Shown: positions 405 to 29,089, counted from the first letter of the stretch. The stretch is 64,000 bases of DNA from Candidatus Rokuibacteriota bacterium (GCA_016193045.1 JACPSW010000059.1:49383-113382), one strand, 5' to 3'. Numbers and translations: made by a program. The notes: generated by a model from the sequence alone, not told the origin.

Positions 405-3400
405 ATGACGACAGAGCACGACATCTCGAACGGCTGCCGGGCCTGGTACCTGGATCGGCGGAACTTCCTCAAGACCGGAGCCTTCCTGGGCGGCTCGGCG
501 CTGCTGGCCGGGCAACTCCAGAGCGCGATGGACCTGATGGGGAGGGCGGAAGCCCAGACCCTCAGCGGCGGCGGCGCATATCCGCTGGCGAAGCCCGAAA
601 ACATCCTCTACTCGGTGTGCCTGCAGTGCAACACAGGGTGCGGGATCAAGGCCAAGGTCCTGAACGGCGTGGTCGTCAAGATCGACGGCAACCCACTCGA
701 CCCCATGAACCTCACCCCTCACCTCCCCTACAAGTCCTCTCCGTTCGACACCGCGACCTACGACGCCATCCTCTGCCCCAAGGGACAGGCCGGGCTCCAG
801 GCCGCTTACGACCCCTACCGGATCGTGAAGGTCTTGAAACGCGCCGGCACGCGCGGGTCGAACGAGTGGACGACGATCCCCTTCGACCAGGCGGTGCGGG
901 AGATTGTCGAGGGCGGCGAGCTCTTCAAGAGCGTGCCCGGGGAGGAAACCCGGAAGGTGGCGGGGCTCAGGGACCTCTGGGCGCTCCGCGACCCCAAGCT
1001 GGCCAAGGCCATGGCCGAGGACGCCAAGGCCGTCCAGGCCAAGAAGATGACCGTGGCGGAGTTCAAGGCCAAGCACGCTGGCCACCTGGACGTCCTGATC
1101 GATCCGGAGCATCCGGATCTGGGAGCCCGGAACAACCAGTTCGTCTTCGCCTGGGGCCGGCTCAAGGCGGGACGCGGGGATTTCATCAACCGGTTCACCA
1201 AGGACGCCTTCGGCTCGGTGAACGCCCACGGCCACACCACCGTCTGCCAGGGGTCGCTCTACTTTTCCGGCAAGGCGATGAGCGAGCAGTACAAGGGGGG
1301 CAAGTGGACGGGCGGGGCCAAGTTCTACTGGCAGGCCGACACGGGCAACTCCGAGTTCATCATCTTCGTGGGGGCCTCGCCCCTCGAGGGCAACTACGGC
1401 CCGCCCCTCAGGATCCCCAAGATCACCGAGGGGCTGACCTCCGGGCGGCTCAGGCTCGCCGTCGTGGACCCGCGCTTCTCCAAGACCGCCGCGAAGGCCT
1501 GGCGCTGGCTCCCCAACAGGCCGGGCACCGAGGGCGCCCTGGCCCTCGCCCTGATCCGCTGGGTCATCGATAACCAGCGCTTCGACGCCCGCTTCCTGGC
1601 CAACGCGAACAAGGCCGCGGCCAAGGCCGACGGAGAGCCCACCTGGACCAACGCCGCCTGGCTCGTCAAGCTGGAAAAGGACGGCGCGCCGGGCGCCTTC
1701 CTCCGCGCCAAGGAGGTCGGGCTCTCGGAGAAGGACCTCTTCGTCGTCCTGAAGGACGGCAAGCCCGTGGCCGTAGACCCCTACGACGAGGCCAACGCGG
1801 TCGAGGGGGACCTCCTCGTCACCGCCGAGGTGTCGGGGATCAAGGTCAAGAGCGGGCTCCAGCTCCTCAAGGAATCGGCCAGCGCCCGCACCATCGAAGA
1901 GTGGGCCGACGTCGCCGGCGTCGGCGCCCGGGACATCGCGGACCTGGCCCAGGAGTTCACCAGCCACGGCAAGAAGGCCGCGGCCGACATCCACCGCGGG
2001 GTCTCCCAGCACACCAATGGCTTCTACAACGTGATCGCCTGGTACGCGCTCAACCTCCTGATCGGCAACTACGACTGGAAGGGCGGGATGATCAAGGCGA
2101 CGACCTACAATCACGCGGGCGCGCGTGAGGGCCAGCCGTTCCCCATCGGCAAGCTCACGCCGGGCAAGGCCGCCCCCTTCGGGCTGAGCCTCATCCGCCA
2201 CGACGCCAAGTACGAGGAGTCCACTCTCTTCACGGGCTACCCGGCCAAGCGGCCCTGGTTCCCGCTCTCCTCCGACCTCTACCAGGAGATCGTCCCGTCG
2301 GCGGGGGACGCCTACCCCTACCCGATCAAGGCCCTCTTCCTCTACATGGGCACGCCAGTGTACTCGCTCCCCGCGGGCCACACGAACATCGAGATCCTCT
2401 CCGACGTGAACAAAGTCCCGCTCTTCGTCGCCTCCGACATCGTGATCGGCGAGACCTCCATGTACGCCGACTACATCTTCCCCGATCTCTCCTACCTCGA
2501 GCGCTGGGAGTTCCACGGCAGCCACCCCTCCGTAGCCCCGAAGATCCAGCCCGTGCGCCAGCCGGTGATCGCCCCCCTTCCCGAGACCGTCCGGGTGTTC
2601 GGCGAGGAGATGCCGATCTCGCTGGAAGCCATGCTGCTGGCGATCGCCGAGCGGCTAGGCCTCGCGGGCTTCGGCAAGGACGGTTTCGGTCCCGGCCGGC
2701 CGTTCACCCGCCCCGATGACTTCTACCTCCGGATGGTGGCCAACGTGGCCGCGGGGGACCGGGCGGGCGACGAGGTGCCCGACGCCAGCGACGAGGAGGT
2801 GAAGCTCTTCCTGGCCTCCCGGCAGCACCTGCCGAAGACCGTCTTCGACTCGGCCCGCTGGGAGCGGATCGTCGGCAACGGCCTGTGGCGCAAGGTGATC
2901 TACGTCCTGAACCGCGGCGGCCGCTTCCAGGACGCCGACAAGGCCTACGACGGCGACAAGGCCGCCAACAAGTACGGCAACCTCATCAACCTCTATCAGG
3001 AGAAAACGGCCAAGACCAAGAACGCGATGACCGGGAAGCCCTTCGCGGGCCTCGCCACCTATTTCCCGGCACCGCTGGACAGCCTGGGACGACCGATCGA
3101 GGATCGCGGGTACGACCTCAGGCTCATCACCTTCCGGGAGATCAGCCACACGAAGTCGCGGACGGCCGCCGACTACTGGCTGCTGCACCTCCTGCCGGAG
3201 AACTCGGTCATCATGAACGAGGTGGACGCCCAGCGGCTCGGGTTCAAGGACGGCCAGACCGTCAAGATCGTCTCGGCCTCGAACCCCGAAGGGGTCTGGG
3301 ACCTGAAGAACGGCCAGAAGCGGCCGATCGCGGGCAAGCTCCGGGTGATCCAGGGGATCCGGCCGGGTGTCGTGGCGTTCTCCCTCGGTCACGGCCACTG

Positions 3401-3587
3401 GGCCTACGGCTCGGCCGATGTCCGCGTGGACGGCAAGGTGGTCAAGGGCGATCCGCGCCGCGGCAAGGGGCTCCACGCCAACGCCGCCCTGCGGGTGGAC
3501 CCGGTTCTCGGCAACACCTGCCTCTCCGACCTGACCGGCGGGAGCGCGGTCTTCTACGACACGCAGGTGAAGGTCGTCAGAGCGTGA
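405..3587 (+). CDS. Molybdopterin (bis-MGD) oxidoreductase catalytic subunit, TAT-exported, of the tetrathionate/polysulfide/thiosulfate-reductase type.
   Basis: 1060 aa. The N-terminus has a twin-arginine signal ([19 protein letters not shown]). A Cys cluster ([11 protein letters not shown]) forms the N-terminal 4Fe-4S motif of the molybdopterin oxidoreductase (MopB) superfamily. The size matches TtrA-like enzymes. A GGGGAAG ribosome-binding site lies upstream of the ATG at 405. Confidence 0.85.
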
Positions 3588-4248: not shown

Positions 4249-4617
4249 CTACCGCCGCGTGATCACGACGATCCGGCCGCGATCGCTCAGGAAGACGGTC
4301 AGGAGCCAGCTCACCACACTGACGATCAGCGCCCCGAGGACGGCCGTCCAGAACCCGTGGACCTCGAACCCCTTCACCAGGAGCGAGGTCAGCCAGAGGG
4401 TGAGGCCGTTCAAGACGAAGAGGAAGAGCCCGAGCGTCACCAGCGTCAGGGGAAAGGTCAGGACGACCAGGACCGGGCGGACCACGGCGTTGACGAGCCC
4501 CAGCACGAGCCCGGCCCCGAGCGCGGTGAGGACACCCCGGATCTCGATCCCGGGGACGATGGCCGCGGCGAGAAAAATGGCCAGGGCGTTGGCGAGGACC
4601 CGCAGCAGGAAGCCCAA
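4249..4617 (-). CDS. DUF360 / phage holin 4_2-family small membrane protein (YvlD-like).
   Basis: The C-terminal ~120 aa of the ORF listed at 4249..5049 is a hydrophobic four-helix protein (LGFLLRVLANALAIFLAAAIVPGIEIRG...). The upstream part of that ORF is low-complexity shadow of the converging + frame. A TTG start at 4617 is likely. It lies 15 nt downstream of the DtxR-family gene on the same strand. Confidence 0.55.
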   Translation of the reverse strand: MGFLLRVLANALAIFLAAAIVPGIEIRGVLTALGAGLVLGLVNAVVRPVLVVLTFPLTLVTLGLFLFVLNGLTLWLTSLLVKGFEVHGFWTAVLGALIVSVVSWLLTVFLSDRGRIVVITRR

Positions 4618-4631
4618 GGGCGGCCCGAGCT

Positions 4632-5327
4632 CTACTTCGGCTGGTAGACCCAGATCTTCCCGGCAGCCGCCAGCCCCAGCACGATCGTCTTGCCGTCGCT
4701 CGCCGTCGTGATCGTCCCGGCCCACGGCGCGACGTCCTGGATCTTGAGCCGCATCCCCGGCCTCACCCCGTTCTGCCACAGGTGCTCGAGGAGCTTCCGG
4801 TCCGCCTCCGCCTCCTCGGTGATGCGCTCGACCACGACCGTCGTGCCTTCCTTGGCCTGGTCGAGCGGGAAGGGATGGGATTGCGACGGGCTCGCCATGC
4901 CCGGGATCGGGTTGCCGTGGGGACAGGTGGTCGGCATCCCGAGGATGGCCGCCAGGCGGTCCTCGACCTTGGGGGAGAGGGCGTGCTCGAGCCGGTGGGC
5001 CTCTTCGTGCGCCTCGGTCCAGTCGAGCCCGAGGATGTCCGTCAGCCACCGCTCGAGGAGCCGGTGGCGCCGGGCCATGACCTCGGCCATGGCCCTGCCT
5101 TTCTTGGTAAGCGTGATCTCCTTGCCCGCGGCCAGCCGGATGTAGCCCGCGCGGGCCATGCGGTGGAGGGCCTCGGTCACCGCGGGGGGGGAGACCTTCA
5201 TGTGCTTGGCGAGCCGCGCTCCGATCACCGGCCGGCCGCTCCCGGCGAGGTCGTAGATCGCCGCCAGATAGTCCTGGACTGAGGCGGTCGTCTCCGCGGA
5301 GGGGGCTTTCCGCGCCTCGTGCGCCAT
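4632..5327 (-). CDS. DtxR/IdeR/MntR-family metal-dependent transcriptional regulator with a C-terminal FeoA/SH3-like domain.
   Basis: Contains the VQDYLAAIYDL...GARLAKHMKVSPPAVTEALHRMARAGYI helix-turn-helix, followed by metal-binding and dimerisation regions and a C-terminal SH3-like domain. The start was chosen at the MAHEARK methionine (5327), which is consistent with the ORF frame. It is divergent from the Fe(III) ABC transporter. Confidence 0.85.
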   Translation of the reverse strand: MAHEARKAPSAETTASVQDYLAAIYDLAGSGRPVIGARLAKHMKVSPPAVTEALHRMARAGYIRLAAGKEITLTKKGRAMAEVMARRHRLLERWLTDILGLDWTEAHEEAHRLEHALSPKVEDRLAAILGMPTTCPHGNPIPGMASPSQSHPFPLDQAKEGTTVVVERITEEAEADRKLLEHLWQNGVRPGMRLKIQDVAPWAGTITTASDGKTIVLGLAAAGKIWVYQPK

Positions 5328-16986: not shown

Positions 16987-19179
16987 CTAGTGCGGCTCGC
17001 CTTCGACCCCGACGTGGTCGCCTGGTCGCGCTGTGGCGGACGCATGCGCCTCCTCGCGACGATCGAGGATCCCAGGGGTATTGGCGAGATCCCGTCCCAT
17101 CTCGGGCTGACCACCGAGGTACTGCGCCGGGACCCGCCATGCGAGCAGCTGTTTACGCAGGGCGGCGCCCGTCTTTACGCGCGGTCGCCAGCCGAGTTCC
17201 TCGCGCGCCTTGCGGCAGTCGAACACCAGCCGCGCGTACGCAGAGCGCAGGCGGTAGGGAGAGATGGAGGCGGGACGCCCCAGCAGATTCAAGAGCCACT
17301 CAATCCCCCTTGCCAGGAAGCACGCCAGGCCCATCGGCACGTGGATGATCCTCAGGTGCGGTTCGCGCCCCTGAGCGTACAGCGAGGCCAGTTCCTCACG
17401 CGTGAGCGAGCCGTCGCCGACACATTGATAGATGCGACCATCGGTGAACGGGCTCCGCGCGGCCTTCACCATCGCTTCCACCGCGTCGTCCACGTGGATG
17501 AGCGGCAACCGGATCGATCGGTCGCCGATGAGGATCAGCCGTCTGCCGGCGCGCATGCCGACCGCAGCAGTGATCAGCGGGCTGCTCTCGCTCCACATCT
17601 GTCCGAGACGCAGGATCAGCGCGGGCACACTGCGCTCCTGCGCCGCAGCGCGCACGATCCGTTCCGCTTCGAGCTTCGCCCGCGTGTAGTAGCCGCGCTG
17701 CTGAGGGAAAGGTTCGAGCGGTGAATTCTCGGTGACCGGCCTCTCGGCGGGATGCCCCGCCCAGTCAGTCACCGAGAGGGAACTGATATGGATGAGCTTC
17801 CCCACGCGGTGCTTGTGGCAGGCCTCGACGATGTTCCGTGTGCCGGTGATCGTGGCCGCTTCATGCGCCTCCCAACCACCGCCCATCGCCGCGCCGATGT
17901 GGAAGACCGTGGTGGCGTTGGCGAGAGCGCGGTCCACCGCCTCTGGATCGCCCAGGTCGCCGAGCGTGACTTCGACCTGCGGGTGATGGAGGATTTCGGG
18001 CGGTGGCAACCGGCGCACGAAGAGCCGCATGAACTCCCCCTCGTCGATGAGTCGGTTCACGAAAGCGCGGCCGAGATGTCCGTTCGCCCCCGTCACGACG
18101 ACAGCCGGGCGATCGCTCGGCCGATACTGGCTGACAAACTTCGCTTTCGCGTGATCCGCCTCGCGGGCGGCCTGTTCGGTCCAACGCACGATGGCGCGCG
18201 CTTGCTCGACGCCAGCCGGCATCGGTCCGCCCGTGGCGAGCGCGTCGTAGAAGTTACGGACGAAATTGTGGAGGCCCTGATAGGGCTGAATCGAGCCCGC
18301 CATGAACCGCACAGCGTTGGAGCTGACTTGCGCGGCGATCGAACCCGCCTCGCCGATGGCGTTGACGACGCGCTCAACCGCCTTCGGCAGCGGCGTGTGG
18401 AAGCGACGGGTGAGGAACATCGAGAACAAATCCGCGCGCAGCGTCCCGCGCGTTCCCTGGATGATGAGTTGGTGCTGCAACGGCTTGATGCTCCATGAAA
18501 GATGGATGCCTCCGGCACCCCGCGCGCATCGGACAAGGGCGCGCCACTCGTCGAAATGGAGGTTGGGGTCGCGGGACCTCGCCCCTGACGTTCTGAAATC
18601 TATCCGTAGATCCTGAATGTCGCCGAGGAACTCCTGAAGAAGATACAGCGCGTGCACGCCGAGATCCCGGAATGGAAAGCCTCCGTCCCGGCACGGCGGC
18701 GGCAACGGCCCGCCGCGATGGGGCGGGTAGTTGGAGCTGCGGAGGTACTCGACGGCGATGATCTCGCCAATAGCGCCGCTGCGCACAAGGTGGAGCGCCT
18801 TCGCCACAAACGGGTCGCCGAGGAGTGAGTGGCTGACGCACAGGTTCACACCTCGCGACGTCGCTTCTCCGGCGAGCCGGTCGCAATCGTCGACGCTCGT
18901 CGCCAGCGGTTTCTCCACGAGGACGTGGCAGCCGAGGGCAAGGGCTTCAAGCGCGACGATGGCGTGACTGTCCGGCGGCGTGAGAACATGGACGACGTCC
19001 AGACCTTCCGCGGCCATAACGGCGAGGGATCGGAAGGACGGGAGGCCCGTGGCTTGAGCCCGGGCCGGGTCGAGGTCCGTAACGCCGACGATGCGCACAT
19101 GGGGGAGCCGCTTCAGCGCCTTGATATGAAACTCGCTGACGTACCCTGCGCCGACCAATCCGACGCGGAAGGTCTTCAT
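16987..19179 (-). CDS. Bifunctional fusion of a Gfo/Idh/MocA-family oxidoreductase (N-terminal) and an NAD-dependent epimerase/dehydratase SDR (C-terminal).
   Basis: 730 aa. The N-terminal domain has VGLVGAGYVSEFHIKAL...EKPLA. The C-terminal domain has VVVTGANGHLGRAFVNRL...YYTRAKLEAE (YxxxK). The two domains are joined in a single ORF with no internal stop. Confidence 0.8.
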   Translation of the reverse strand: MKTFRVGLVGAGYVSEFHIKALKRLPHVRIVGVTDLDPARAQATGLPSFRSLAVMAAEGLDVVHVLTPPDSHAIVALEALALGCHVLVEKPLATSVDDCDRLAGEATSRGVNLCVSHSLLGDPFVAKALHLVRSGAIGEIIAVEYLRSSNYPPHRGGPLPPPCRDGGFPFRDLGVHALYLLQEFLGDIQDLRIDFRTSGARSRDPNLHFDEWRALVRCARGAGGIHLSWSIKPLQHQLIIQGTRGTLRADLFSMFLTRRFHTPLPKAVERVVNAIGEAGSIAAQVSSNAVRFMAGSIQPYQGLHNFVRNFYDALATGGPMPAGVEQARAIVRWTEQAAREADHAKAKFVSQYRPSDRPAVVVTGANGHLGRAFVNRLIDEGEFMRLFVRRLPPPEILHHPQVEVTLGDLGDPEAVDRALANATTVFHIGAAMGGGWEAHEAATITGTRNIVEACHKHRVGKLIHISSLSVTDWAGHPAERPVTENSPLEPFPQQRGYYTRAKLEAERIVRAAAQERSVPALILRLGQMWSESSPLITAAVGMRAGRRLILIGDRSIRLPLIHVDDAVEAMVKAARSPFTDGRIYQCVGDGSLTREELASLYAQGREPHLRIIHVPMGLACFLARGIEWLLNLLGRPASISPYRLRSAYARLVFDCRKAREELGWRPRVKTGAALRKQLLAWRVPAQYLGGQPEMGRDLANTPGILDRREEAHASATARPGDHVGVEGEPH

Positions 19180-20336: not shown

Positions 20337-21358
20337 TCGGATTCCCCTTGTGGCTTGCCGATCCTTACTACGCGCGGGTCAGTTGATCTAATTGGAAGCG
20401 ACGCCCAATGCGCAATCGGTTTCTTCAGGACACAAAAGACCGCAAAGACGAAAAATTCGTCCAGCAGGGGAATTTGGCTCAGGCCCCTCAACCAGTGGCC
20501 GACTCTGAACGCCTTTCCAGAAAATCCGATGCGCTCAAAGTGAACAGTTTCAAATGGTAGAACCTTGAGCATCCGCCGGAATTGACGGATCGTCATGTGG
20601 TTGAGGTACTCCTTCCAATGTTGGTGATCCGTGTAGGGATTCGGGCGACGTTTTCCGGTGTCGGGATCGAACCAATAGTAGGCAGGTGTGTATTCGTCTG
20701 AGGCGTAAAGGTAAGCCGCGGCGTTCAGGAGTGTCTCCATCGAGAAGACCGTATGGAGCCACGGAAGCGGAAGGATGTCCTCAAGGTGTGAACCATACGG
20801 ACCAAGCCAGGGATGAAAGTGGACCAGAAACACACCCCCCGGGCGCAAGAGGCGATAGCACTCCCTGAAAATGTCTTCGGCCCGGCTGAGATGTTCAACG
20901 GTGTCTACGGTGTAGACCACATCGACGGACTCGTTGGGCAGGGGAATGCCCGAGGCCGTGGATTCCACAAAATGGATTCCGTTGCCGTGCTCGGCGCGCC
21001 CACGGGCCAGAGCCGATCTATCAATGTCAATTCCGATTGGCGAAAACTGCTCCTGCTGGCGAAAGGCCTTGAGGAGGTATCCCGTCGAGCATCCGAGCTC
21101 AGCGACCGACTTTCCACTGAACCGGGCGAAACGAGCGAACAGGCCGTAGTATCTCTCGATGTTTGACAAGCGGTCATCCACATGGTTCTGAGCGCTATCG
21201 TATCTCGCTCCCAGTCGGCCGTATCTCAAACCGAACCGTCGGAGTCGTCCGCTAAGAAACACTCGAGCGACGGCCAAACATACCTTCTCCGAAACCCGTG
21301 TGAGCTCTGGCCGCCCATTCAGTGCGACATCCTGCATTTTCGCCTCATGCTGGCCCAC
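20333..21358 (-). CDS. Class I SAM-dependent methyltransferase.
   Basis: SAM-binding motif I (VAELGCSTGYL), motif post-I (IGIDID) and LLRPGGVF are present. Confidence 0.75.
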   Translation of the reverse strand: MGQHEAKMQDVALNGRPELTRVSEKVCLAVARVFLSGRLRRFGLRYGRLGARYDSAQNHVDDRLSNIERYYGLFARFARFSGKSVAELGCSTGYLLKAFRQQEQFSPIGIDIDRSALARGRAEHGNGIHFVESTASGIPLPNESVDVVYTVDTVEHLSRAEDIFRECYRLLRPGGVFLVHFHPWLGPYGSHLEDILPLPWLHTVFSMETLLNAAAYLYASDEYTPAYYWFDPDTGKRRPNPYTDHQHWKEYLNHMTIRQFRRMLKVLPFETVHFERIGFSGKAFRVGHWLRGLSQIPLLDEFFVFAVFCVLKKPIAHWASLPIRSTDPRVVRIGKPQGESE

Positions 21359-21743
21359 GGAACCCTCCGTCAGAAGGTCCTAACAGTCGTTCGAAGGCCC
21401 ACAAGCAAGGTGTGCCGTGAGGAGGGCGGCTGGAGAAGTCCGGGGCGTCATCACGGTTCCCATCGCCGAGCTGGCCGTAGTCGTTCAGCCCCCAGCACCG
21501 CACCGTGGCCTCCTCCAGGAGCGCGCAGGTGTGGAAGGCGCCGGCTTCGACGGCGGTGGCCGTGCTGATTACGGTCGCCGTGAACTGCTGGGTCTGGCCG
21601 ACGGCGATGGTGGGATCCGCCGGCGTGACGCTGATGGCCTGGGCGGCGACCTCATCTGTAGCCAGAGCGAGCACGAGGCTGAAGACGCCGGACAAAACCA
21701 GTGCTCTTGCCTTCCATTGTGGACCACGCCCATGTGGCTTCAT
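21345..21743 (-). pseudogene. Truncated paralog of the RCC1-repeat secreted protein. Only the signal peptide, Ig-like (Big_2) segment and first RCC1 blade survive before the frame diverges.
   Basis: About 300 bp (roughly 21440-21745) are near-identical to the 5' end of the full gene (roughly 24185-24444), including a 53-bp identical run (gccgtgaactgctgggtctggccgacggcgatggtgggatccgccggcgtgac). After about 100 codons the homology ends, and the ORF runs into the start of the methyltransferase gene. Confidence 0.5.
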
Positions 21744-21787
21744 GCGATGAAGGCGCCTCTAGAGCAGCAGCACCGCGGCGACGCCTC

Positions 21788-22885
21788 CTAGCGGACGCGA
21801 TAGACCGCGACAAACAGGCTGTTCAACACGGGAGCGTCGGCCAGCCGGCCCAACACGCCGAAGCTCATGCCAAGCTTGGCGTAAAAGTGTGCCTCGACCA
21901 GAGCCGCGCCCCGCGGAGCCAACTGCCGCGTAAGCTCGCCCAAGGTCGCGACGTTCTTGATGTGAGCAAAGTACGAGGGCCGGCCCGTCAGTCGGAACGT
22001 GAGCTGCTCCACCTTGCGGTAAATCGCCGACTTGTTTGGGAGCGAAACAATCAGGTGCCCGCCCTTGTTAAGCAGGTTCACAACGACATTCAGGCAGTGG
22101 GGCAGATCATCCACGTAATCCAGCACACTCGAACACAAGAGCAGGTCCGCCTTGGCGAGACCCGCGCCCGGCAAGTCCTCCAGCCGGTTGCAGCCAAACC
22201 TCACGTTCAGCACCTTCAACTCCGCCTGTTTCTGCTTGCAAAATTCGATCATCTCCGGGCTGGCGTCGATGCCAACGACCATCTTGTTGAATTTGGCCGC
22301 CGCGAAGCTGAACATCCCGACCCCACAGCCCACATCCAGGACCGAGGCAGCTGGCGAACTGTACTTCTCGATCAGCTTCGTCCAGACCGAGTAGCGCTCG
22401 CGGAAATCGGGGGCCTTTTGGTATTTCGCCGCAAATCCGTGGACGCATCGCGAGTGGAACTCGATGGCGTCTTTGGCCTTCATGCTTCGACTGACGTTCC
22501 CGCACATTGTGGTGTCATCCTGCGAACGGCGGCCCACACCGCTGCATATGAGCGCGACGAGCAGAACGCCAGTGAGGTTGAGGCCGACATCCATCGGCGA
22601 CAGGCTTCGGCCTGGCACCCCGCCCTGGTACCACTCGACGGAGAGCCCCAAGGCGCTGCCGACTGCAAGCACCAGCGCGGCGCGCTGCCGGACCGGCCAC
22701 CGGCGGAAGGCCAAGGTCAGGCACAAGGCGAGGCACGCGAAAAGCGGGATATGCGAGGCATTCCAAGCGAACCGCCAGAACCCCCTGCCCGCCGGTGTCG
22801 CGCCTCCGGGGAGAGACGATACGTAGAAGAGGGCCCCTACGTAAGCCAGGCTCAGAACGGTATAGACGGGAGACAGTCGTTTCAA
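21788..22885 (-). CDS. Fusion protein of a VanZ-like membrane domain (N-terminal) and a class I SAM-dependent methyltransferase (C-terminal).
   Basis: Residues 1-120 form four hydrophobic helices with a VanZ-like signature (VSSLPG...H, SVEWYQ). The C-terminal part has the VLDVGCGVGMFS SAM motif I, GIDAS, and LNKGGHLIV. Confidence 0.7.
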   Translation of the reverse strand: MKRLSPVYTVLSLAYVGALFYVSSLPGGATPAGRGFWRFAWNASHIPLFACLALCLTLAFRRWPVRQRAALVLAVGSALGLSVEWYQGGVPGRSLSPMDVGLNLTGVLLVALICSGVGRRSQDDTTMCGNVSRSMKAKDAIEFHSRCVHGFAAKYQKAPDFRERYSVWTKLIEKYSSPAASVLDVGCGVGMFSFAAAKFNKMVVGIDASPEMIEFCKQKQAELKVLNVRFGCNRLEDLPGAGLAKADLLLCSSVLDYVDDLPHCLNVVVNLLNKGGHLIVSLPNKSAIYRKVEQLTFRLTGRPSYFAHIKNVATLGELTRQLAPRGAALVEAHFYAKLGMSFGVLGRLADAPVLNSLFVAVYRVR

Positions 22886-22997
22886 AACCTGTCAGGCTGT
22901 CACGGCGGCGCTGATGCGTTTGCTGGACCTGCTGCTGATCGAAGAACGACCTGATCCGAACCTCATCACAGGCCCCTCAATGACGGTGGCTAGCTTG

Positions 22998-23026
22998 AAT
23001 CCCCGCAGTTGATCGCCGCGGGGATT
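22998..23026 (-). terminator. Perfect 9-bp stem hairpin immediately downstream of the RCC1 gene; an intra-locus terminator- or attenuator-like element.
   Basis: AATCCCCGC-11 nt loop-GCGGGGATT begins 6 nt after the RCC1 gene stop (23032). No U-tract follows. Confidence 0.25.
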
Positions 23027-23031
23027 GGAGG

Positions 23032-24444
23032 TCACGGTAACACTGTGAGCGTGGTGCTCCCACTCCGGCCGCCGGAGGTCGCGGTGATCGTCGTGAATCC
23101 CGGGAGGAGGCCCGTGGCCAACCCAGTCGCAGTGATCGTGGCGACCGTCTCGTCGTCGCTCGTCCACGTCGCGCCGAGCCCGACCACTGTCACGGGAGTG
23201 AAGGCATCGGTGGTGGCGCCGTTGCCGAGCCGGCCGAACAGGCCCCGCCCCCAGCATTGCACCGTTCCGCCCGGAAGGAGCGCGCAGCCATGCTCGGCGC
23301 CCGATGTGGCGGCGGTGGCGGTAGTGATTCCGGTGACCCCGGCTCCCGGGGTGGCAAAAACGCCTCTCGGGCTCCCGTCGCCGCGCTGGCCGTAGTTGTT
23401 GTCCCCCCAGCATTGCACCCTTCCGTCCCCAAGGAGCACGCAGGTGTGCTCGGCGCCGGGTGCGAGGGCGGCGGGGGTGATGCCGCTGATGGTCACTGGG
23501 GTGGAGGACGAATTGAATGCTGGTGTCTGGCCGAGCTGGCCAAACTCGTTCCAGCCCCAGCATTGCATCGTGCCGTCCTGAAGGAGCGCGCAAGTGTGGA
23601 AGATGCCGGACTTGATGGCGACGTCCGTGGTGATTCCGGTGACCTCCACCGGGATGGGGGTGGGCCTGGGGGCGGGGGGGGCGGGGCGTTGAGTGATCGG
23701 GCTCCCATCGCCGAGCTGGCCGTACTCGTTCCGCCCCCAGCAGCGCACCCTGCCGTCCTGAAGGAGCGCGCAGGTGTGCCACCCGCCGGCGGAGACGGCG
23801 GTGGCCGTGGTGATTCCGAACACTTCCACCGGGGTGGAGTTGGTGAATAGTGGGAATAGCGCGGGTGCAGTGGTCCCGTTGCCAAGCTGGCCGTAGTCGT
23901 TCTGCCCCCAGCACCGCACGGTGCCGTTCTGAAGCAGCGCGCAGGTGTGGTAACCGCCGCCCGTCACGGCCGTGGCAGTGGTCATTCCGGTGACCGGCAC
24001 CGGCGTGGCGGAGAAGAAGGCAGTGGTGGCGGGGTCGCCGAGCTGGCCTTCACTGTTCCGCCCCCAGCATCCGAGCGTGCCGTCGGGAAAGCGCGCGCAG
24101 GTGTGGAAGCCGCCGCCCGTGACCGCCGCGGCGCCCGTGACCCCGGCGACCGCCACCGGGGTGGAGGAATCGGTTCGGGTCCCGTCGCCGAGCTGGCTGT
24201 AGTCGTTCAGCCCCCAGCAGCGCAGCGTGGCATCCTCCAAGAGCGCGCAGGTGTGGAAGGCCCCGGCTTCGACAGCGGAAGCCGTGTCGATTCCGGTCGC
24301 CGTGAACTGCTGGGTCTGGCCGACGGCGATGGTGGGATCCGCCGGCGTGACCGCGATGGTCTGCGCCACGACCTCGTCGGCGGCCAGAAGAGAGACGAGG
24401 CCGAGGACACCTAAGACAAGGACGAGGCTCGCATTTCTCTTCAT
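23032..24444 (-). CDS. Secreted RCC1-repeat (seven-blade beta-propeller) protein flanked by bacterial Ig-like (Big_2) domains.
   Basis: Signal peptide MKRNASLVLVLGVLGLVSLLAA. Seven repeats of the GxHTCALLxDGxxxCWGxNxxGQLGDG consensus follow. Big_2-like segments sit at the N-terminus (IAVTPADPTIAVGQTQQFTATG) and C-terminus. Confidence 0.8.
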   Translation of the reverse strand: MKRNASLVLVLGVLGLVSLLAADEVVAQTIAVTPADPTIAVGQTQQFTATGIDTASAVEAGAFHTCALLEDATLRCWGLNDYSQLGDGTRTDSSTPVAVAGVTGAAAVTGGGFHTCARFPDGTLGCWGRNSEGQLGDPATTAFFSATPVPVTGMTTATAVTGGGYHTCALLQNGTVRCWGQNDYGQLGNGTTAPALFPLFTNSTPVEVFGITTATAVSAGGWHTCALLQDGRVRCWGRNEYGQLGDGSPITQRPAPPAPRPTPIPVEVTGITTDVAIKSGIFHTCALLQDGTMQCWGWNEFGQLGQTPAFNSSSTPVTISGITPAALAPGAEHTCVLLGDGRVQCWGDNNYGQRGDGSPRGVFATPGAGVTGITTATAATSGAEHGCALLPGGTVQCWGRGLFGRLGNGATTDAFTPVTVVGLGATWTSDDETVATITATGLATGLLPGFTTITATSGGRSGSTTLTVLP

Positions 24445-24802
24445 CTCGTACCCTCCGCTCTACTTCTCTTTCGTAATCCACTCACCTTTTCGGGAGCCAC
24501 GCTCCACGATCAGTGCCGTCATCCTGACGCCATCCTAGAATCTCGAGCGGGGAAGGACAATCAGGTGGAAACCCGCATCAACCATGGGGGAATCCCCGAA
24601 CAGGTGGGGGAGGCGGCCTACAGTCGAGGCGTGCGGTTTGCGGTTCGATTTTGTAGCCAGTCAGGCTATGAGAGTTGATGCGATCGAGTCACGCTCGCTG
24701 CAGAGCGACCGATCGCTGTCTCGGGACCGAGAGACGAAGACCCTGTGGGGTGCCCGCCCTCCGTCAGTACCGCCCGGGGGCGGGCACCCCATCAATTGGC
24801 CT

Positions 24803-26452
24803 TCAGCCCAGCTTCTGGAACGCGTCGGCGGCGCGGAGCACCGTACCATCCTCCCAATGACGTCCAATCAGCATCATGCCGACTGGGAGTCCCGCGGACA
24901 TGCCGGCCGGGACGGTAGCTGCGGGATGGCCGGTCACGTCGAAGGGGGCGGTGTTGGCGATCATCTCGAGGGCCCGCGCCACGTACTCCTCGCGGCTGGC
25001 GTTGGGCGCGGGGAGCAGAGTAGCCTTCAGCGGCAGCGTCGGCATCAGGAGCAGATCCACGTTCTTCAGGGCCTCGTCGTAGGCGGCCCGGAGCACGCGG
25101 GCCAGGTTCTGGGCCTTGGCGTAGTAGCGGCCCTGGTAGTTGTCCTGCATGTACTGGCCGAGCAGGATGACCAGCTTGACGGTCTCCGACAGGTCATTGG
25201 CGCGCGCCCGTCGGCTCCGGCCGTAGAAGTCCAGCAGCGAGGTGGTATAGTGGCCCTTCCAGTTCGTCCCCATGCTGTTGCCGGCGACCATCAGCATAGT
25301 CGCGCCCTCGACGGCGATCGCATTCCAGATGTCGAGGCCGTCACGGTGGAGCGGGATGGACACCTCGCTCACGGAGGCCCCGGCCCCTGTCAAGCGCTGC
25401 CCGGCCTGGCGCACCATGTCATCCACGTCCCGCTCGGAGTTAGGCCAGGCGAACCCCTCCTTCACGATCCCGATGCGCAGGCCCCGGGCGTCTCCGGTGA
25501 GCCGCTTCGTGTACGCATCCGTGCGGAGCCCGGCTGGCTGGCGTGGGTCGAGGCCGTCGGGCCCGGCGATCACCTCCAGGAGCAGGGCGCAGTCAGCGGC
25601 GCTGCGGGCGATGGGGCCGGTGTGATCCAGCGTGAGCTCGATCGGGAAGACACCCGTGTAGGGCACCAGACCATAGGTCGGCTTGTGGCCGACGGCGCCG
25701 CAGAATGAACTCGGGATCCGGATCGATCCGCCCTGATCGCCGCCCATGGCCATGTCGCACTCGCGGGCTACCACCAGGGCCGCGCTACCGCTGGAGGAGC
25801 CGCCGGCCGATCGCTTCGGGTCGTGGGGGTTGAGGACGGGTCCCGTATCCGAGGTGTGGCTGCCGCCCGAGAAGCAAAGGTGCTCGCAGACCGACTTGCC
25901 AATGATCTCCCCGCCCGCGTCCAGAATGCGGGTCACGATGGTCGCGTCGACGTCGGGCACATAGCCTTCGAGGACGTTGGAACCGTTCATCATCGGGATC
26001 CCGGCGACGCAGACGTTGTCCTTGATCGCGATCTTCTTGCCGGCGAGCAGCCCGGAGGGCGCACCCTTGATCGAGGACTTCCAGTACCACGCGTTGAGCC
26101 GATTCTCAGAGGCGGGCGGACGGTGTCCCGCGTCCCGCGGGTACTTCACCGGCAGCGTGGGCTCCGCGAACTGGTCGAGGCGGCGGTACGAGGCGAGCAC
26201 CCCGTCCATAAGATTACGGAACGACGCGAGGTCCTCACGGCTCAGGTCCAGGCCGTAGGACCTGGCAATGCGCTCCAACTCGCCTAGCGGCGGCTTGCGC
26301 AGGATCCGCGGGGCGGTCGCGGCTGGTGGCGGGGCCTGCACCTCTGCGGCCCCGGCCTGGCTAGGCCTTGTCGGAGTGACGAGGGTCGCCGCCATGGCGG
26401 CCGCGCTCGTACGGAGAAACTGGCGACGCGAATGTTTCGGCGAACCTAGCAT
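24803..26452 (-). CDS. Amidase-signature-family amidase, TAT-exported.
   Basis: Start at MLGSPKHSRRQFLRTSAAAMAATLV (twin-arginine motif; GAGGAGG ribosome-binding site). The amidase-signature core (GGSSSGSAALVA) and Ser-cisSer-Lys triad region are present. Confidence 0.85.
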   Translation of the reverse strand: MLGSPKHSRRQFLRTSAAAMAATLVTPTRPSQAGAAEVQAPPPAATAPRILRKPPLGELERIARSYGLDLSREDLASFRNLMDGVLASYRRLDQFAEPTLPVKYPRDAGHRPPASENRLNAWYWKSSIKGAPSGLLAGKKIAIKDNVCVAGIPMMNGSNVLEGYVPDVDATIVTRILDAGGEIIGKSVCEHLCFSGGSHTSDTGPVLNPHDPKRSAGGSSSGSAALVVARECDMAMGGDQGGSIRIPSSFCGAVGHKPTYGLVPYTGVFPIELTLDHTGPIARSAADCALLLEVIAGPDGLDPRQPAGLRTDAYTKRLTGDARGLRIGIVKEGFAWPNSERDVDDMVRQAGQRLTGAGASVSEVSIPLHRDGLDIWNAIAVEGATMLMVAGNSMGTNWKGHYTTSLLDFYGRSRRARANDLSETVKLVILLGQYMQDNYQGRYYAKAQNLARVLRAAYDEALKNVDLLLMPTLPLKATLLPAPNASREEYVARALEMIANTAPFDVTGHPAATVPAGMSAGLPVGMMLIGRHWEDGTVLRAADAFQKLG

Positions 26453-26575
26453 CGCACATCCTCCTCTTGACCGGCGGGTTGTGAAACCAATCACCAGGAA
26501 AGCGTCGCCCCACGGTCTGCCGCTTCGTCTGGAAACATGACCGGGCGCCACTTCCCGTCAACACACATTCCTAAT

Positions 26576-29089
26576 TCATCGCGCAACCGCGCTAGATGGT
26601 GGGAAATCTGGGAGAAGGTCACCTGCGCTCGTCTCACCCGCCAAATCATGGACTCCACTGCGCAGCTTCCTGAATACGGCAAAAGCCAGCGCGTACAAAC
26701 CCAGTGCGACCAGGATAGCGACGTTCAAACCGAACGCTATGCTGATTGGCACGCTCAGTAGACCACCAACGACGGTAAACAAGCCGTTCATCCCCCACGC
26801 CCAAGCGATTGCACCACGAGGCTGGTTTGCGATCGCTAGAATGCCCAGAGGGAACGGCATACCGAGGAGAAACCCTACAGGAAATATCATAACCCCCGAC
26901 GCGAGGATTCTACCGGTAAGAGGCAATCCGAGAACCAGACCGGATAGCCATGGATAGAGTATCACAAACGCAAGACCCACGGCGAGGACTCCCAGGAACG
27001 GTATCGCCCATCTGCGCCGACATTCAATCCCCAACATCTCCGACGACCCGCTGCCGATTCCCGCTGCAAGCAGCAATGTGAATATGACCGTCGAATACGT
27101 GTGCAGTGGGCTGCCGATCAGTTGCATGAATTTTTGTATGAAGACGAGCTCAAGAATAATGAACCCCGCACCCAGGCAAGAAAAGTACAAGAGCAACGGT
27201 ACAGCGCTCGTCCCCCTTTCTCTGCCAATCTTCGAGAATCGCAGAGGAACCAGAACAAACAGCAATACAAATACAGCAGAAGCGAATCCGGTAAAGAATA
27301 AGTGCACCCAATCCATCGGAATGACGCCTTTGATGAGTGATTGGTTCAGAACAGCTGCAGTCCCCACATCCAGATAGTTCCTTGCATCCGGGTCCAAGCG
27401 CTCGATCGTCTTTCGAAGCAATCCAAAATAGGGTCTGTCGTCCGTGCGCGGCGTGACGTGAACGGCCATCCGGTCGGCCAGCTCATCGGGAAAACCCCCG
27501 GAATAAAACTCCTGCGACAGGAACCTCTCCTTCGGCTCCAGCGGATTCTCAACAAGACTCAGACGATGGTCTTCATCAGCCTCAGGCGGCGCCAGGAACT
27601 TGTTCAGCGACGCAATTTCCGCGGCTGTCCATGGCTGATTCTTTACCAGCAGAGTGGGCAGCAGAGGTTCCAGTGGGTAGGCATAGACAGCAACGTGGCG
27701 TGCAAAATCGGTTCGTCCCATGCGCTTCCACGCCAGCGCAGCGGTCGTAATCATTCTCGGATATGCATAGTGATTAATGTGCAGTATGCCATTGGCGGTC
27801 AGCCGCGAGAAATACTCCTGATAAGCCTCGGCAGTCTGCAGATACACCGGCGCTAGGGCGCCCGTGCCCTGCGCAACGCTCGAGCTTGTGTGATTGCTAT
27901 AGATCTGAATGACGTCGTACTTGCGGTCGCTGTGGCGTAAGAAGCTTCGACCTTCACCAGCCTGAACGCGCACAGCCGGGTTGTGAAATATGTGGCCGAT
28001 ATACTTCGAGTACCGACCGGTCGCGAGTTCGACTACGGTCGGCACCAGCTCTACAGCATCGATATAGGTCGCACCGTACATCAGGGCGGCTTTTGTTTCC
28101 TGGCCGCCTGCGCTCCCAATTACCAAGACCCTGTGCCCCGCATCGCGTTTCAGGTAGTGCGACGCCAAAACGCCGATCTGCCAGAAGTGCTCAGTAATAC
28201 GGGATTTGTCGTGCTCGATATGTTCCCGAAGAGACTTCAGATCGCCGTCAAACTTATAGAAGTAACTCGTCTGATTACCGCCGTCGTACTGAATGGCCTT
28301 TCGATCACCGTACCGATGCCATGGCGTGGATATTTCAGGTGACCACGTTTCATCGATCACCTCGATCTTTGATATCGGATCCCAGCGAACGAGCTCGCGC
28401 CTGCCTTTTTCGACGGCGTCCTTCACCCTCCCCTGCTTGTCCATGTGCTGCACAAAGTCAATATAGTCTGGTGCTTTGACCATTGGCAGGGCGACGGCCA
28501 GGACCGCTAGAACACCAGCAGCGCGACTGCGGAATCGCGACTCTGTAAACAACGCCGCCGCCAGGAGTCCCAGTCCCGCCGCACACACAATAAGGCCGCC
28601 AGGGCCGAGTGTTGATATGAATGGAACGACGATCACACTCCCCAAGCCCGCGCCGATCAGATCCCAGAAATACAATCTTTGAATCCTCAGCGCATATTTT
28701 GAGAACGTTGCAATGAGTACGTAACCGGCCAGAAAGAATGGAAGAAGCAGAGCCACGTACAGAAGGGCGAACGATGCCACGGTGATGAACGGACGTCGGA
28801 CGATGCTCGTGTAGTCAAGCGGCAAGACGTTGATCAGTGGGATCACCAACGCAGTCGTCGCCGCAAATCCAACGCTTCCTGTAAAAAGAATCTCACTGAT
28901 CTCTCGATCTACCGGAATCGGGCGCAGGGTCGCCCACACTCCAGCCAGACCAAAGGCGAATACGGCGACTGTTACGACGAAATAGGCGATGTTAGGGGCC
29001 AGCATCACGTCAAACACACGCGTAAGCATGAGCTCAAGCACCAGCGTCGCAAGAGCAATCAACAGGATTCCGCACGAAAGCCTGCGCAT
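26576..29089 (-). CDS. Large polytopic membrane protein with a central spermidine/spermine-synthase-like (aminopropyltransferase-fold) domain.
   Basis: 837 aa. An N-terminal block of about 7 transmembrane helices is followed by a soluble domain with VLVIGSAGGQETKAALMYGATYIDAVELVP...DVIQIY (a SpeE-like class I methyltransferase fold), then a second multi-helix membrane block. Its GC content is markedly lower than that of its neighbours. Confidence 0.65.
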   Translation of the reverse strand: MRRLSCGILLIALATLVLELMLTRVFDVMLAPNIAYFVVTVAVFAFGLAGVWATLRPIPVDREISEILFTGSVGFAATTALVIPLINVLPLDYTSIVRRPFITVASFALLYVALLLPFFLAGYVLIATFSKYALRIQRLYFWDLIGAGLGSVIVVPFISTLGPGGLIVCAAGLGLLAAALFTESRFRSRAAGVLAVLAVALPMVKAPDYIDFVQHMDKQGRVKDAVEKGRRELVRWDPISKIEVIDETWSPEISTPWHRYGDRKAIQYDGGNQTSYFYKFDGDLKSLREHIEHDKSRITEHFWQIGVLASHYLKRDAGHRVLVIGSAGGQETKAALMYGATYIDAVELVPTVVELATGRYSKYIGHIFHNPAVRVQAGEGRSFLRHSDRKYDVIQIYSNHTSSSVAQGTGALAPVYLQTAEAYQEYFSRLTANGILHINHYAYPRMITTAALAWKRMGRTDFARHVAVYAYPLEPLLPTLLVKNQPWTAAEIASLNKFLAPPEADEDHRLSLVENPLEPKERFLSQEFYSGGFPDELADRMAVHVTPRTDDRPYFGLLRKTIERLDPDARNYLDVGTAAVLNQSLIKGVIPMDWVHLFFTGFASAVFVLLFVLVPLRFSKIGRERGTSAVPLLLYFSCLGAGFIILELVFIQKFMQLIGSPLHTYSTVIFTLLLAAGIGSGSSEMLGIECRRRWAIPFLGVLAVGLAFVILYPWLSGLVLGLPLTGRILASGVMIFPVGFLLGMPFPLGILAIANQPRGAIAWAWGMNGLFTVVGGLLSVPISIAFGLNVAILVALGLYALAFAVFRKLRSGVHDLAGETSAGDLLPDFPPSSAVAR

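Follow-up and report, generated by a model that had tools for sequence, protein, structure and literature searches.

Can a small membrane domain of the VanZ family be built into one polypeptide with an S-adenosylmethionine (SAM)-dependent methyltransferase and, if so, what does it contribute there? The question is raised by an open reading frame (ORF) on the minus strand, at 21788-22885, of a stretch of 64,000 nucleotides (nt) from a Candidatus Rokubacteria metagenome-assembled genome (MAG; GCA_016193045.1 JACPSW010000059.1:49383-113382), referred to hereafter as the window. A preliminary description of the sequence had proposed that it joins, in one frame, a four-helix VanZ-like N-terminus and a complete class I methyltransferase within a glycan locus. 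We find that the gene fusion is real and specific to one lineage, a Candidatus Rokubacteria population. In the reading that we favour, with a probability of about one half, the VanZ-derived part tethers a glycan methyltransferase of a Wzx/Wzy locus to the membrane, with its helices kept and its pyrophosphatase site weakened or retuned.

The fused reading frame and its two halves

The ORF runs from a TTG start codon to a TAG stop and encodes 365 amino acids (aa). A TGA lies in frame two codons 5′ of the TTG, so the ORF cannot be extended, and its translation contains no stop codon between the VanZ half and the methyltransferase half. A mis-assembly or an indel error could have created a false frame joining two separate genes, and the linker between the halves would be sensitive to such an error. 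Both other frames of this region hold stops, one of which overlaps the methyltransferase ATG as ATGA, so that a single indel within codons 115-134 would separate the genes. However, two Logan contigs that were assembled separately (L011 and L012; runs SRR12113385 and SRR12113425) encode an identical 365-aa product. They align to the window without gaps at 99.85-99.95% identity over ~2 kb and differ from it at three single-nucleotide polymorphism (SNP) positions, one being a synonymous change within the fusion ORF. The MAG contig and the two single-run contigs agree base for base through the ORF, with zero indels, and the linker is free of long homopolymers. This gapless agreement of three assemblies makes an artefact very unlikely. 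It bears out the preliminary description, which had argued from the uninterrupted frame and had named a sequencing error as a danger to its claim.

The NCBI annotation of the same MAG (MBI3029533.1) gives a protein of 308 aa only, beginning at an internal TTG that is codon 58 of the fusion. This codon lies inside the second transmembrane helix (TM2), so the VanZ domain is cut in the middle of helix 2; the 308-aa gene call is an annotation error that shortens the VanZ domain. The plus strand carries an antisense ORF of 417 aa (21701-22954) that spans the entire fusion; homology lends it no support, and ORFs of this kind are typical of high-GC sequence. In this window the length of an open frame is by itself a poor indicator of a gene.

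Codons 1-114 (22544-22885, minus strand) encode a VanZ/Llp1 domain of the Lipocone type with four transmembrane helices. The Pfam model PF04892 scored 30.2 bits on the full protein and 32.9 bits on the N-terminus alone, a small margin over the cut-off of 30.1, and the NCBIfam model vanZ_1 (NF037970) scored 27.2 on the fusion against a cut-off of 20. Residues 1-114 are 68% identical to a stand-alone VanZ protein of 124 aa (P0011) and 53% identical to a second one (P0159). At the nucleotide level, 80% identity to the P0011 gene, in locus L006, extends from the start codon to about codon 110. The first residues of P0011, MKRLSP, are those of the fusion, so that homology begins at the start codon, which supports the TTG as the start of the fused gene. 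The N-terminus contains four hydrophobic segments coinciding with the four predicted helices, which AlphaFold2 (AF2) placed at residues 6-24, 35-60, 65-89 and 97-128, with low confidence in the N-terminal part (predicted local distance difference test, pLDDT, 50-59). A single-sequence AlphaFold model of the fusion (pLDDT 44) was uninformative. With both family models above their cut-offs and a close stand-alone relative, the N-terminus is a true VanZ homologue and not a generic anchor. Its score with the VanZ model is ~8.5 bits lower than those of its stand-alone relatives (32.9 bits versus 41.5 for P0011 and 41.2).

The 20-residue linker, codons 115-134 (SGVGRRSQDDTTMCGNVSRS; 22484-22543, minus strand), has a pLDDT below 50 and is net basic, consistent with a cytoplasmic location.

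Codons 135-365 and the stop (21788-22483, minus strand) make up a class I SAM-dependent methyltransferase domain, and the ATG at 22483 is where the ancestral, stand-alone gene started. Pfam Methyltransf_31 matched at 5.7e-23 and Methyltransf_11, 25, 12 and 23 at 1e-14 to 1e-17, covering residues 164-331. In the family alignment, D184, G186, C187, G188 and G190 of the SAM-binding motif I (VLDVGCGVG, residues 182-190; 22316-22342, minus strand) are invariant, and G205/D207, with the acidic residue after strand 2, are invariant or nearly so. AF2 modelled residues 140-365 with pLDDT >90 as a Rossmann-like seven-strand fold, for which Foldseek against the PDB returned methyltransferases only, with a probability of 1.00 (3l8d, NodS 3ofk with TMt 0.83, UbiG, CmoA and others); these nearest solved structures are generic. 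The profile searches suggested in the preliminary description thus matched both VanZ and class I methyltransferase models above their cut-offs, and its claim of a complete, in-frame methyltransferase is upheld by Pfam, the AF2 model and Foldseek.

The methyltransferase half is 83% identical in amino acid sequence and 88% identical in nucleotide sequence to a stand-alone protein, P0002, encoded in locus L001, and 51% identical in amino acid sequence to P0003. Members of this stand-alone family have ~206-253 aa and start near MKAxDA; the region of the fusion that is homologous to them begins at codon 135. All nine of the closest homologues are stand-alone, as are more distant relatives, which lie 3′ of GT4 genes (L003, L004). 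Glycosyltransferase neighbours or fusions are found in L003 and L004 and in P0032, P0049, P0081, P0083, P0100 and P0127.

Origin, spread and translation of the fused gene

The breakpoints of the fusion were located by comparison with L001 and with L002 and L008, which belong to the same population as L001. In all three the gene order is GMC oxidoreductase, an 840-aa protein of unknown function, a secreted RCC1-repeat protein, the methyltransferase P0002 and a second methyltransferase, and 63 bp separate the RCC1 stop from the P0002 start. The fusion shares the synteny of P0002, with the RCC1 gene 5′ and the second methyltransferase 3′. Synteny breaks in blastn alignments and the junction sequences reveal in the window an extra segment of 483 bp, exactly 161 codons, that is absent from L001, L002 and L008 (22484-22966, minus strand). 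The segment starts directly after the relative's ribosome-binding site and start codon and ends at ATG 22483, homology resuming as MKAKDA. The short repeat ATGA(G/A)G borders it, at 22966 and 22483.

Within this segment, the fused VanZ is without the last ~10 codons and the stop of the stand-alone gene and adjoins the methyltransferase start in frame. That the old VanZ stop is still there but is bypassed by a frameshift was considered and rejected: no significant homology between the linker and the 3′ tail of the stand-alone VanZ gene was detected past about codon 113, and 83% of shuffles scored at least as well. The 483-bp difference might represent a gain in the window or a loss in the relative by deletion between the short repeats. 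No outgroup with RCC1-methyltransferase synteny was found, and a scan of genome contigs gave nothing close. Because the more distant methyltransferase homologues are all stand-alone, the fused state is derived at some level. The stand-alone parental states of both halves survive in closely related populations, the methyltransferase at 83% identity and VanZ at 68%.

A Rosetta-stone relationship, in which VanZ and the methyltransferase would be neighbours in relatives, was also rejected: VanZ is followed by a formyltransferase gene in L006 and by a FemAB-like acyltransferase gene in L010, and the methyltransferase relatives have no VanZ gene 5′. In both L006 and L010, VanZ is stand-alone and lies within sugar-modification loci; this stand-alone form of the small four-helix VanZ has 124-132 aa. 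It is coupled translationally to its 5′ gene, through an ATGA overlap with an amine oxidase gene in L006 (1-6276) and a 4-nt overlap with a GT4 gene in L010 (1-7415). Its 3′ neighbours in these loci differ (formyltransferase, FemAB-like acyltransferase, asparagine synthase). Such varied neighbours show that the small VanZ subfamily travels between different sugar-tailoring cassettes.

The spread of the fusion was assessed in a word-indexed search of 5.8 billion proteins, which returned relatives of either half as stand-alone proteins only, and in an exhaustive HMMER scan of 1.84 billion cluster representatives. The 150 best matches of the latter were listed, all with at least 127 bits, a level that would not be reached by a fusion of a distant VanZ to a class I methyltransferase of another family. 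None of these 150 representatives matched both halves. All matched residues ~130-365 except P0011, which matched residues 1-114, and most were stand-alone. The long matches among the 150 were GT4-methyltransferase, GT2-methyltransferase and methyltransferase-methyltransferase fusions, which indicates that this methyltransferase family does fuse to glycan enzymes but, among the matches listed, not to VanZ. A search with the VanZ part only did not return P0001, although residues 58-134 are identical there; this is probably a property of the candidate filter. On the evidence of these searches the VanZ-methyltransferase fusion is a singleton, a single-lineage event known from one population.

The region 5′ of the fused gene retains the ancestral translation signals. 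A Shine-Dalgarno-like GAGGGG (22973-22978, minus strand) lies 6 nt before an ATG at 22966 and corresponds to the ribosome-binding site of the relative's methyltransferase; L001 has GAAGG 7 nt before its GTG start. This ATG, at the position of the ancestral methyltransferase start, opens an upstream ORF of 24 codons (22892-22966, minus strand) that encodes MRFGSGRSSISSRSSKRISAAVTA and is in frame with the fusion; 6 nt separate its TGA stop from the TTG. No comparable Shine-Dalgarno-like site precedes TTG 22885 or ATG 22483, though most genes in the window have one. The sole good ribosome-binding site is the ancestral one, before the upstream ORF; translation of the fusion probably relies on it, which suggests termination-reinitiation. 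Right after the RCC1 stop and before the fusion region, a stable hairpin is predicted (22998-23026, minus strand; -20.4 kcal/mol, z = -3.3, none of 200 shuffles as stable), without a T-run. By eye, its stem looks weaker in L001. In a scan for promoters and terminators nothing rose above background.

These features bear on whether the fusion matters at all. A recent rearrangement might have put a VanZ fragment in frame incidentally, giving a selectively neutral or decaying fusion, in which case the VanZ part would have no role and would be beginning to erode, and the methyltransferase would work as before, either from the fused protein or by internal initiation at ATG 22483. The occurrence of the fusion as a singleton, the stop between the ancestral start and the new ORF, the weak ribosome-binding site at the TTG and the failure of the NCBI pipeline to call the full ORF all fit such an event. 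So does the locus, which is rearrangement-prone: two further lineage-specific rearrangements relative to L001 lie in the same stretch, an extra amidase segment and a duplicated RCC1 N-terminal fragment. Against it, the internal ATG lacks the ribosome-binding site that most window genes have, the four hydrophobic helices are intact, and an unbroken ORF is present in each of two samples that show SNP-level diversity.

Setting, topology and the VanZ active site

The fused gene lies in a single ~50-kb polysaccharide locus of the Wzx/Wzy, lipid-linked type, on the minus strand at ~13.9-63.8 kb (13904-63774). Its transfer and assembly genes encode a Bac_transf priming transferase, a Wzx flippase and a Wzy_C polymerase/ligase; its glycosyltransferases comprise two of family GT4, two of GT2, a further GT1-like enzyme and a PMT_2/ArnT-like GT-C enzyme; and its sugar genes encode two UDP-GlcNAc 2-epimerases, two UDP-glucose dehydrogenases, a DegT aminotransferase, epimerases, acetyltransferases and a deacetylase. 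The glycan-locus setting claimed in the preliminary description was thus confirmed as a full Wzx/Wzy-type pathway. The locus is mosaic relative to L001, L006 and L008.

SAM-dependent enzymes must be cytoplasmic, and repeat units linked to undecaprenyl pyrophosphate (Und-PP) are assembled in the same compartment. In the fusion, nine lysine or arginine residues are present in the N-terminus, the TM2-TM3 loop and the linker, as against three in the other two loops. By the positive-inside rule and hydropathy, the N-terminus, the TM2-TM3 loop and the C-terminus are predicted to be in the cytoplasm. A cytoplasmic C-terminus would hold the methyltransferase at the inner face of the membrane. In the same predicted topology, the putative catalytic residues of VanZ map to the periplasmic ends of helices 2-4. 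Sites on opposite faces could not act on one head group simultaneously, which weakens the idea that VanZ binds the substrate of the methyltransferase. It is improbable, in our judgement, that the VanZ module has lost hydrolysis and is now a non-catalytic module that binds or tethers the Und-PP carrier and presents the lipid-linked glycan to the fused methyltransferase. Were this so, a Lipocone 'pseudo-enzyme' for substrate presentation in polysaccharide tailoring would have been caught soon after its origin, while sister populations still hold both stand-alone parents.

The activity of VanZ-family proteins has recently been addressed. Llp1, a VanZ-family protein of yeast, and Escherichia coli YfiM are reported to act on lipid-linked oligosaccharides as Ca2+-dependent pyrophosphatases (Li et al., bioRxiv 10.64898/2026.09.16.752124, citing a 2025 paper by the same authors). 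There, H87, E128, R137, D143 and D147 are given as VanZ active-site or metal residues, and YfiM D91A, at the position equivalent to D147, as near-inactive. Mapped by spacing and motif, the corresponding putative residues of the fusion span 22577-22753 on the minus strand: H45 (22751-22753), E84 (22634-22636), R93 (22607-22609), D99 (22589-22591) and N103 (22577-22579). The spacing of E84, R93, D99 and position 103 (9, 6, 4) is that of E128, R137, D143 and D147. H45, E84, R93 and D99 have been kept in the fusion, and position 103, which is Asp in both P0011 and P0159, is Asn in the window. Two subfamilies have been defined, VanZ-1 with an Asn in helix 2 and DxDDxxxN in helix 4, and VanZ-2 with RKxxH in helix 2 and DxxxD in helix 4 (PMC12419801). 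Features of both are mixed here, with N42-x-x-H45 in helix 2, ExxQ in helix 3 and, in helix 4, DxxxD in the stand-alone members and DxxxN in the window.

The changes in the fused copy are concentrated around this site. With P0159 as outgroup, the fused copy and P0011 have 12 unique changes each. Of the 12 changes specific to the fused copy, ten cluster at residues 79-103 (scan permutation p = 1e-4) and are radical, among them D83V, H86Y, W89G and D103N, whereas those unique to P0011 are scattered and conservative; D83V, H86Y and D103N distinguish the fused copy from both stand-alone relatives. Relative to L006, the ratio of non-synonymous to synonymous substitution rates (dN/dS) rises from 0.30 in VanZ codons 2-78 to 0.95 in codons 79-103; for the methyltransferase half relative to L001 it is 0.31. 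Clustering of radical changes in the catalytic region is a further point for an incidental fusion with a decaying VanZ part, and the dN/dS of 0.30 for codons 2-78 stands against it. With the points raised above, we consider such a fusion unlikely, though by no means negligible.

The opposite view is that both halves are fully active and that the fusion couples two steps of one pathway. The methyltransferase would modify the glycan in the cytoplasm, and VanZ would hydrolyse surplus or aberrant Und-PP-glycan in the periplasm, recycling the carrier; fusion would fix the stoichiometry of the two activities and co-localize them. The exact spacing of the conserved H45, E84, R93 and D99, an Asn at the last position that the VanZ-1 consensus tolerates (PMC12419801), a VanZ part still above curated cut-offs, purifying selection on the TM1-TM3 region and the native residence of VanZ genes in such loci speak for two active sites. 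On the other side, Asp103, D83 and H86 have been kept by both stand-alone relatives, and the fused copy has changed all three together with seven neighbouring residues. The dN/dS of ~1 in codons 79-103 and the reported near-inactivity of YfiM D91A at the equivalent position (bioRxiv 10.64898/2026.09.16.752124) point the same way, and the fusion has not recurred, as a coupled function might predict. We regard a bifunctional enzyme, with this division of labour, as the leading alternative to a tether, at rather long odds.

We favour the conversion of VanZ into a tether. A small four-helix VanZ/Llp1 gene would have been placed in frame before the start codon of a stand-alone ~230-aa glycan-locus methyltransferase. 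The product would place the methyltransferase at the inner face of the membrane, where the priming transferase and the glycosyltransferases build Und-PP-linked units before Wzx flips them, and there it may methylate a sugar of the growing lipid-linked glycan or of a precursor. The VanZ-derived module would serve mainly as a membrane tether, and its periplasm-facing pyrophosphatase site has probably been weakened or retuned, given D103N at the reported essential Asp and the radical cluster around it.

Several points weigh against this proposal. The topology is derived from the positive-inside rule, and the N-terminal model has low confidence. By chance, about a third of insertions would be joined in frame. 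No overall acceleration in the rate of the fused VanZ was found, at 12 unique changes on either side, and only their distribution and nature differ; the numbers of substitutions are small, and the changes cannot be dated relative to the fusion event. As four of the five reported residues are kept and Asn is the last position of the VanZ-1 consensus, the domain may still be active. Finally, the fusion is known from one population, and no independent occurrences indicate that it has been selected as a unit.

The wider locus and comparison with known systems

Other features of the locus were recorded. The secreted RCC1 protein encoded in mid-locus, a seven-repeat β-propeller with a C-terminal Big_2 domain (23032-24444, minus strand), is kept in L001 and L008. 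A shortened paralogue of 132 aa (21345-21743, minus strand) overlaps the start of the next gene, and nt 21455-21686 are 83% identical to the N-terminus of the RCC1 gene of L001. Both Logan contigs end at 21600 inside this paralogue, as expected for a repeat. Between the RCC1-repeat gene and that for an 837-aa protein, a ~2-kb segment (24574-26595) that is absent from L001 carries an amidase gene with a twin-arginine translocation signal (24803-26551, minus strand). The 837-aa protein (26576-29089, minus strand) has no Pfam match, is 85% conserved in L001 and is encoded by the lowest-GC part of the window (0.56-0.58 compared with ~0.65-0.69 in most of it). Another fusion, of 730 aa, joins a GFO/IDH/MocA oxidoreductase to an NAD-dependent epimerase/dehydratase (16987-19179, minus strand). 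The locus also encodes a CofD-like protein, a heparinase II/III-like protein and two large β-helix proteins, one with a laminin-G domain. Its flanks carry genes for a Phage_holin_4_2 protein of the four-TM holin superfamily IV (4249-5049, minus strand) and a 1060-aa molybdopterin oxidoreductase (405-3587, plus strand).

VanZ has been placed in the Lipocone superfamily, in which an extensive diversity of VanZ domain fusions is described, among them cases in which a cytoplasmic domain is attached to a VanZ terminus (Burroughs et al., eLife 2025, PMC12419801). The statement in the preliminary description that VanZ proteins are normally stand-alone was therefore too simple. The same study linked VanZ to polysaccharide loci and predicted that it acts on flipped polyprenyl-PP-sugar head groups. 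The preliminary description had also offered the fusion as a hint that VanZ binds polyprenyl-linked substrates. The idea of such a substrate was already in print (PMC12419801; bioRxiv 10.64898/2026.09.16.752124), and the fusion itself is a weak hint, being confined to one lineage, with its two sites predicted on opposite faces and its VanZ active-site region unusually changed. Its value as a clue to VanZ function is accordingly limited, since the clue is in the literature and the fusion is a single event. Its value lies rather in a clean, datable natural experiment, in which the unfused parents survive, the breakpoint is exactly at the old start codon and the old ribosome-binding site drives an upstream ORF. 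The fusion could serve to test how a polytopic enzyme comes to be a membrane anchor, and what difference, if any, it makes to a glycan methyltransferase to be tethered. In addition, a shortened database gene call is corrected.

The fusion can be compared with stand-alone VanZ/Llp1 proteins (PF04892), with which it shares the four-helix core, the H...E-x8-R-x5-D spacing and the polysaccharide-locus setting. Only the fusion has a 251-residue extension after the core, made up of linker and methyltransferase and predicted to be cytoplasmic, and the Asp that P0011 and P0159 carry at the last catalytic position is replaced by Asn, with clustered radical changes at residues 79-103. With the stand-alone ~230-aa methyltransferases of glycan loci (P0002-P0158) it has in common the MKAKDA start and the invariant SAM-binding residues. 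Members of that family readily acquire glycan enzymes as N-terminal fusion partners, in the GT4, GT2 and methyltransferase combinations described above, and the partner in the window is instead VanZ.

The methyltransferase WbdD acts in ABC-transporter pathways and has, in addition to a kinase domain, an amphipathic helix through which it binds the membrane. The fusion lies in a Wzx/Wzy-type locus and has a polytopic VanZ anchor; its similarity to O-antigen methyltransferases of the WbdD type is weak and confined to the SAM core (E ~6e-5), so that the analogy is functional only and the fusion is not a family member. Published architectures that combine a Lipocone domain with a methylase are Skillet-DUF2809-MTase, Skillet-2-MTase and calcineurin-MTase, calcineurin being also fused to VanZ-2; the context network in that study does not list VanZ-1 or VanZ-2 as the N-terminal neighbour of an MTase, and VanZ and a methylase are nowhere directly adjacent in it (PMC12419801, network file). 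Like the fusion, these architectures unite a Lipocone membrane domain and a methylase in one polypeptide. They do so through Skillet-clade domains or an intervening calcineurin-type phosphoesterase, whereas the fusion joins VanZ directly to the methyltransferase. We conclude that VanZ plus methyltransferase is a new domain combination within the known multi-domain VanZ/Lipocone proteins of polysaccharide loci.

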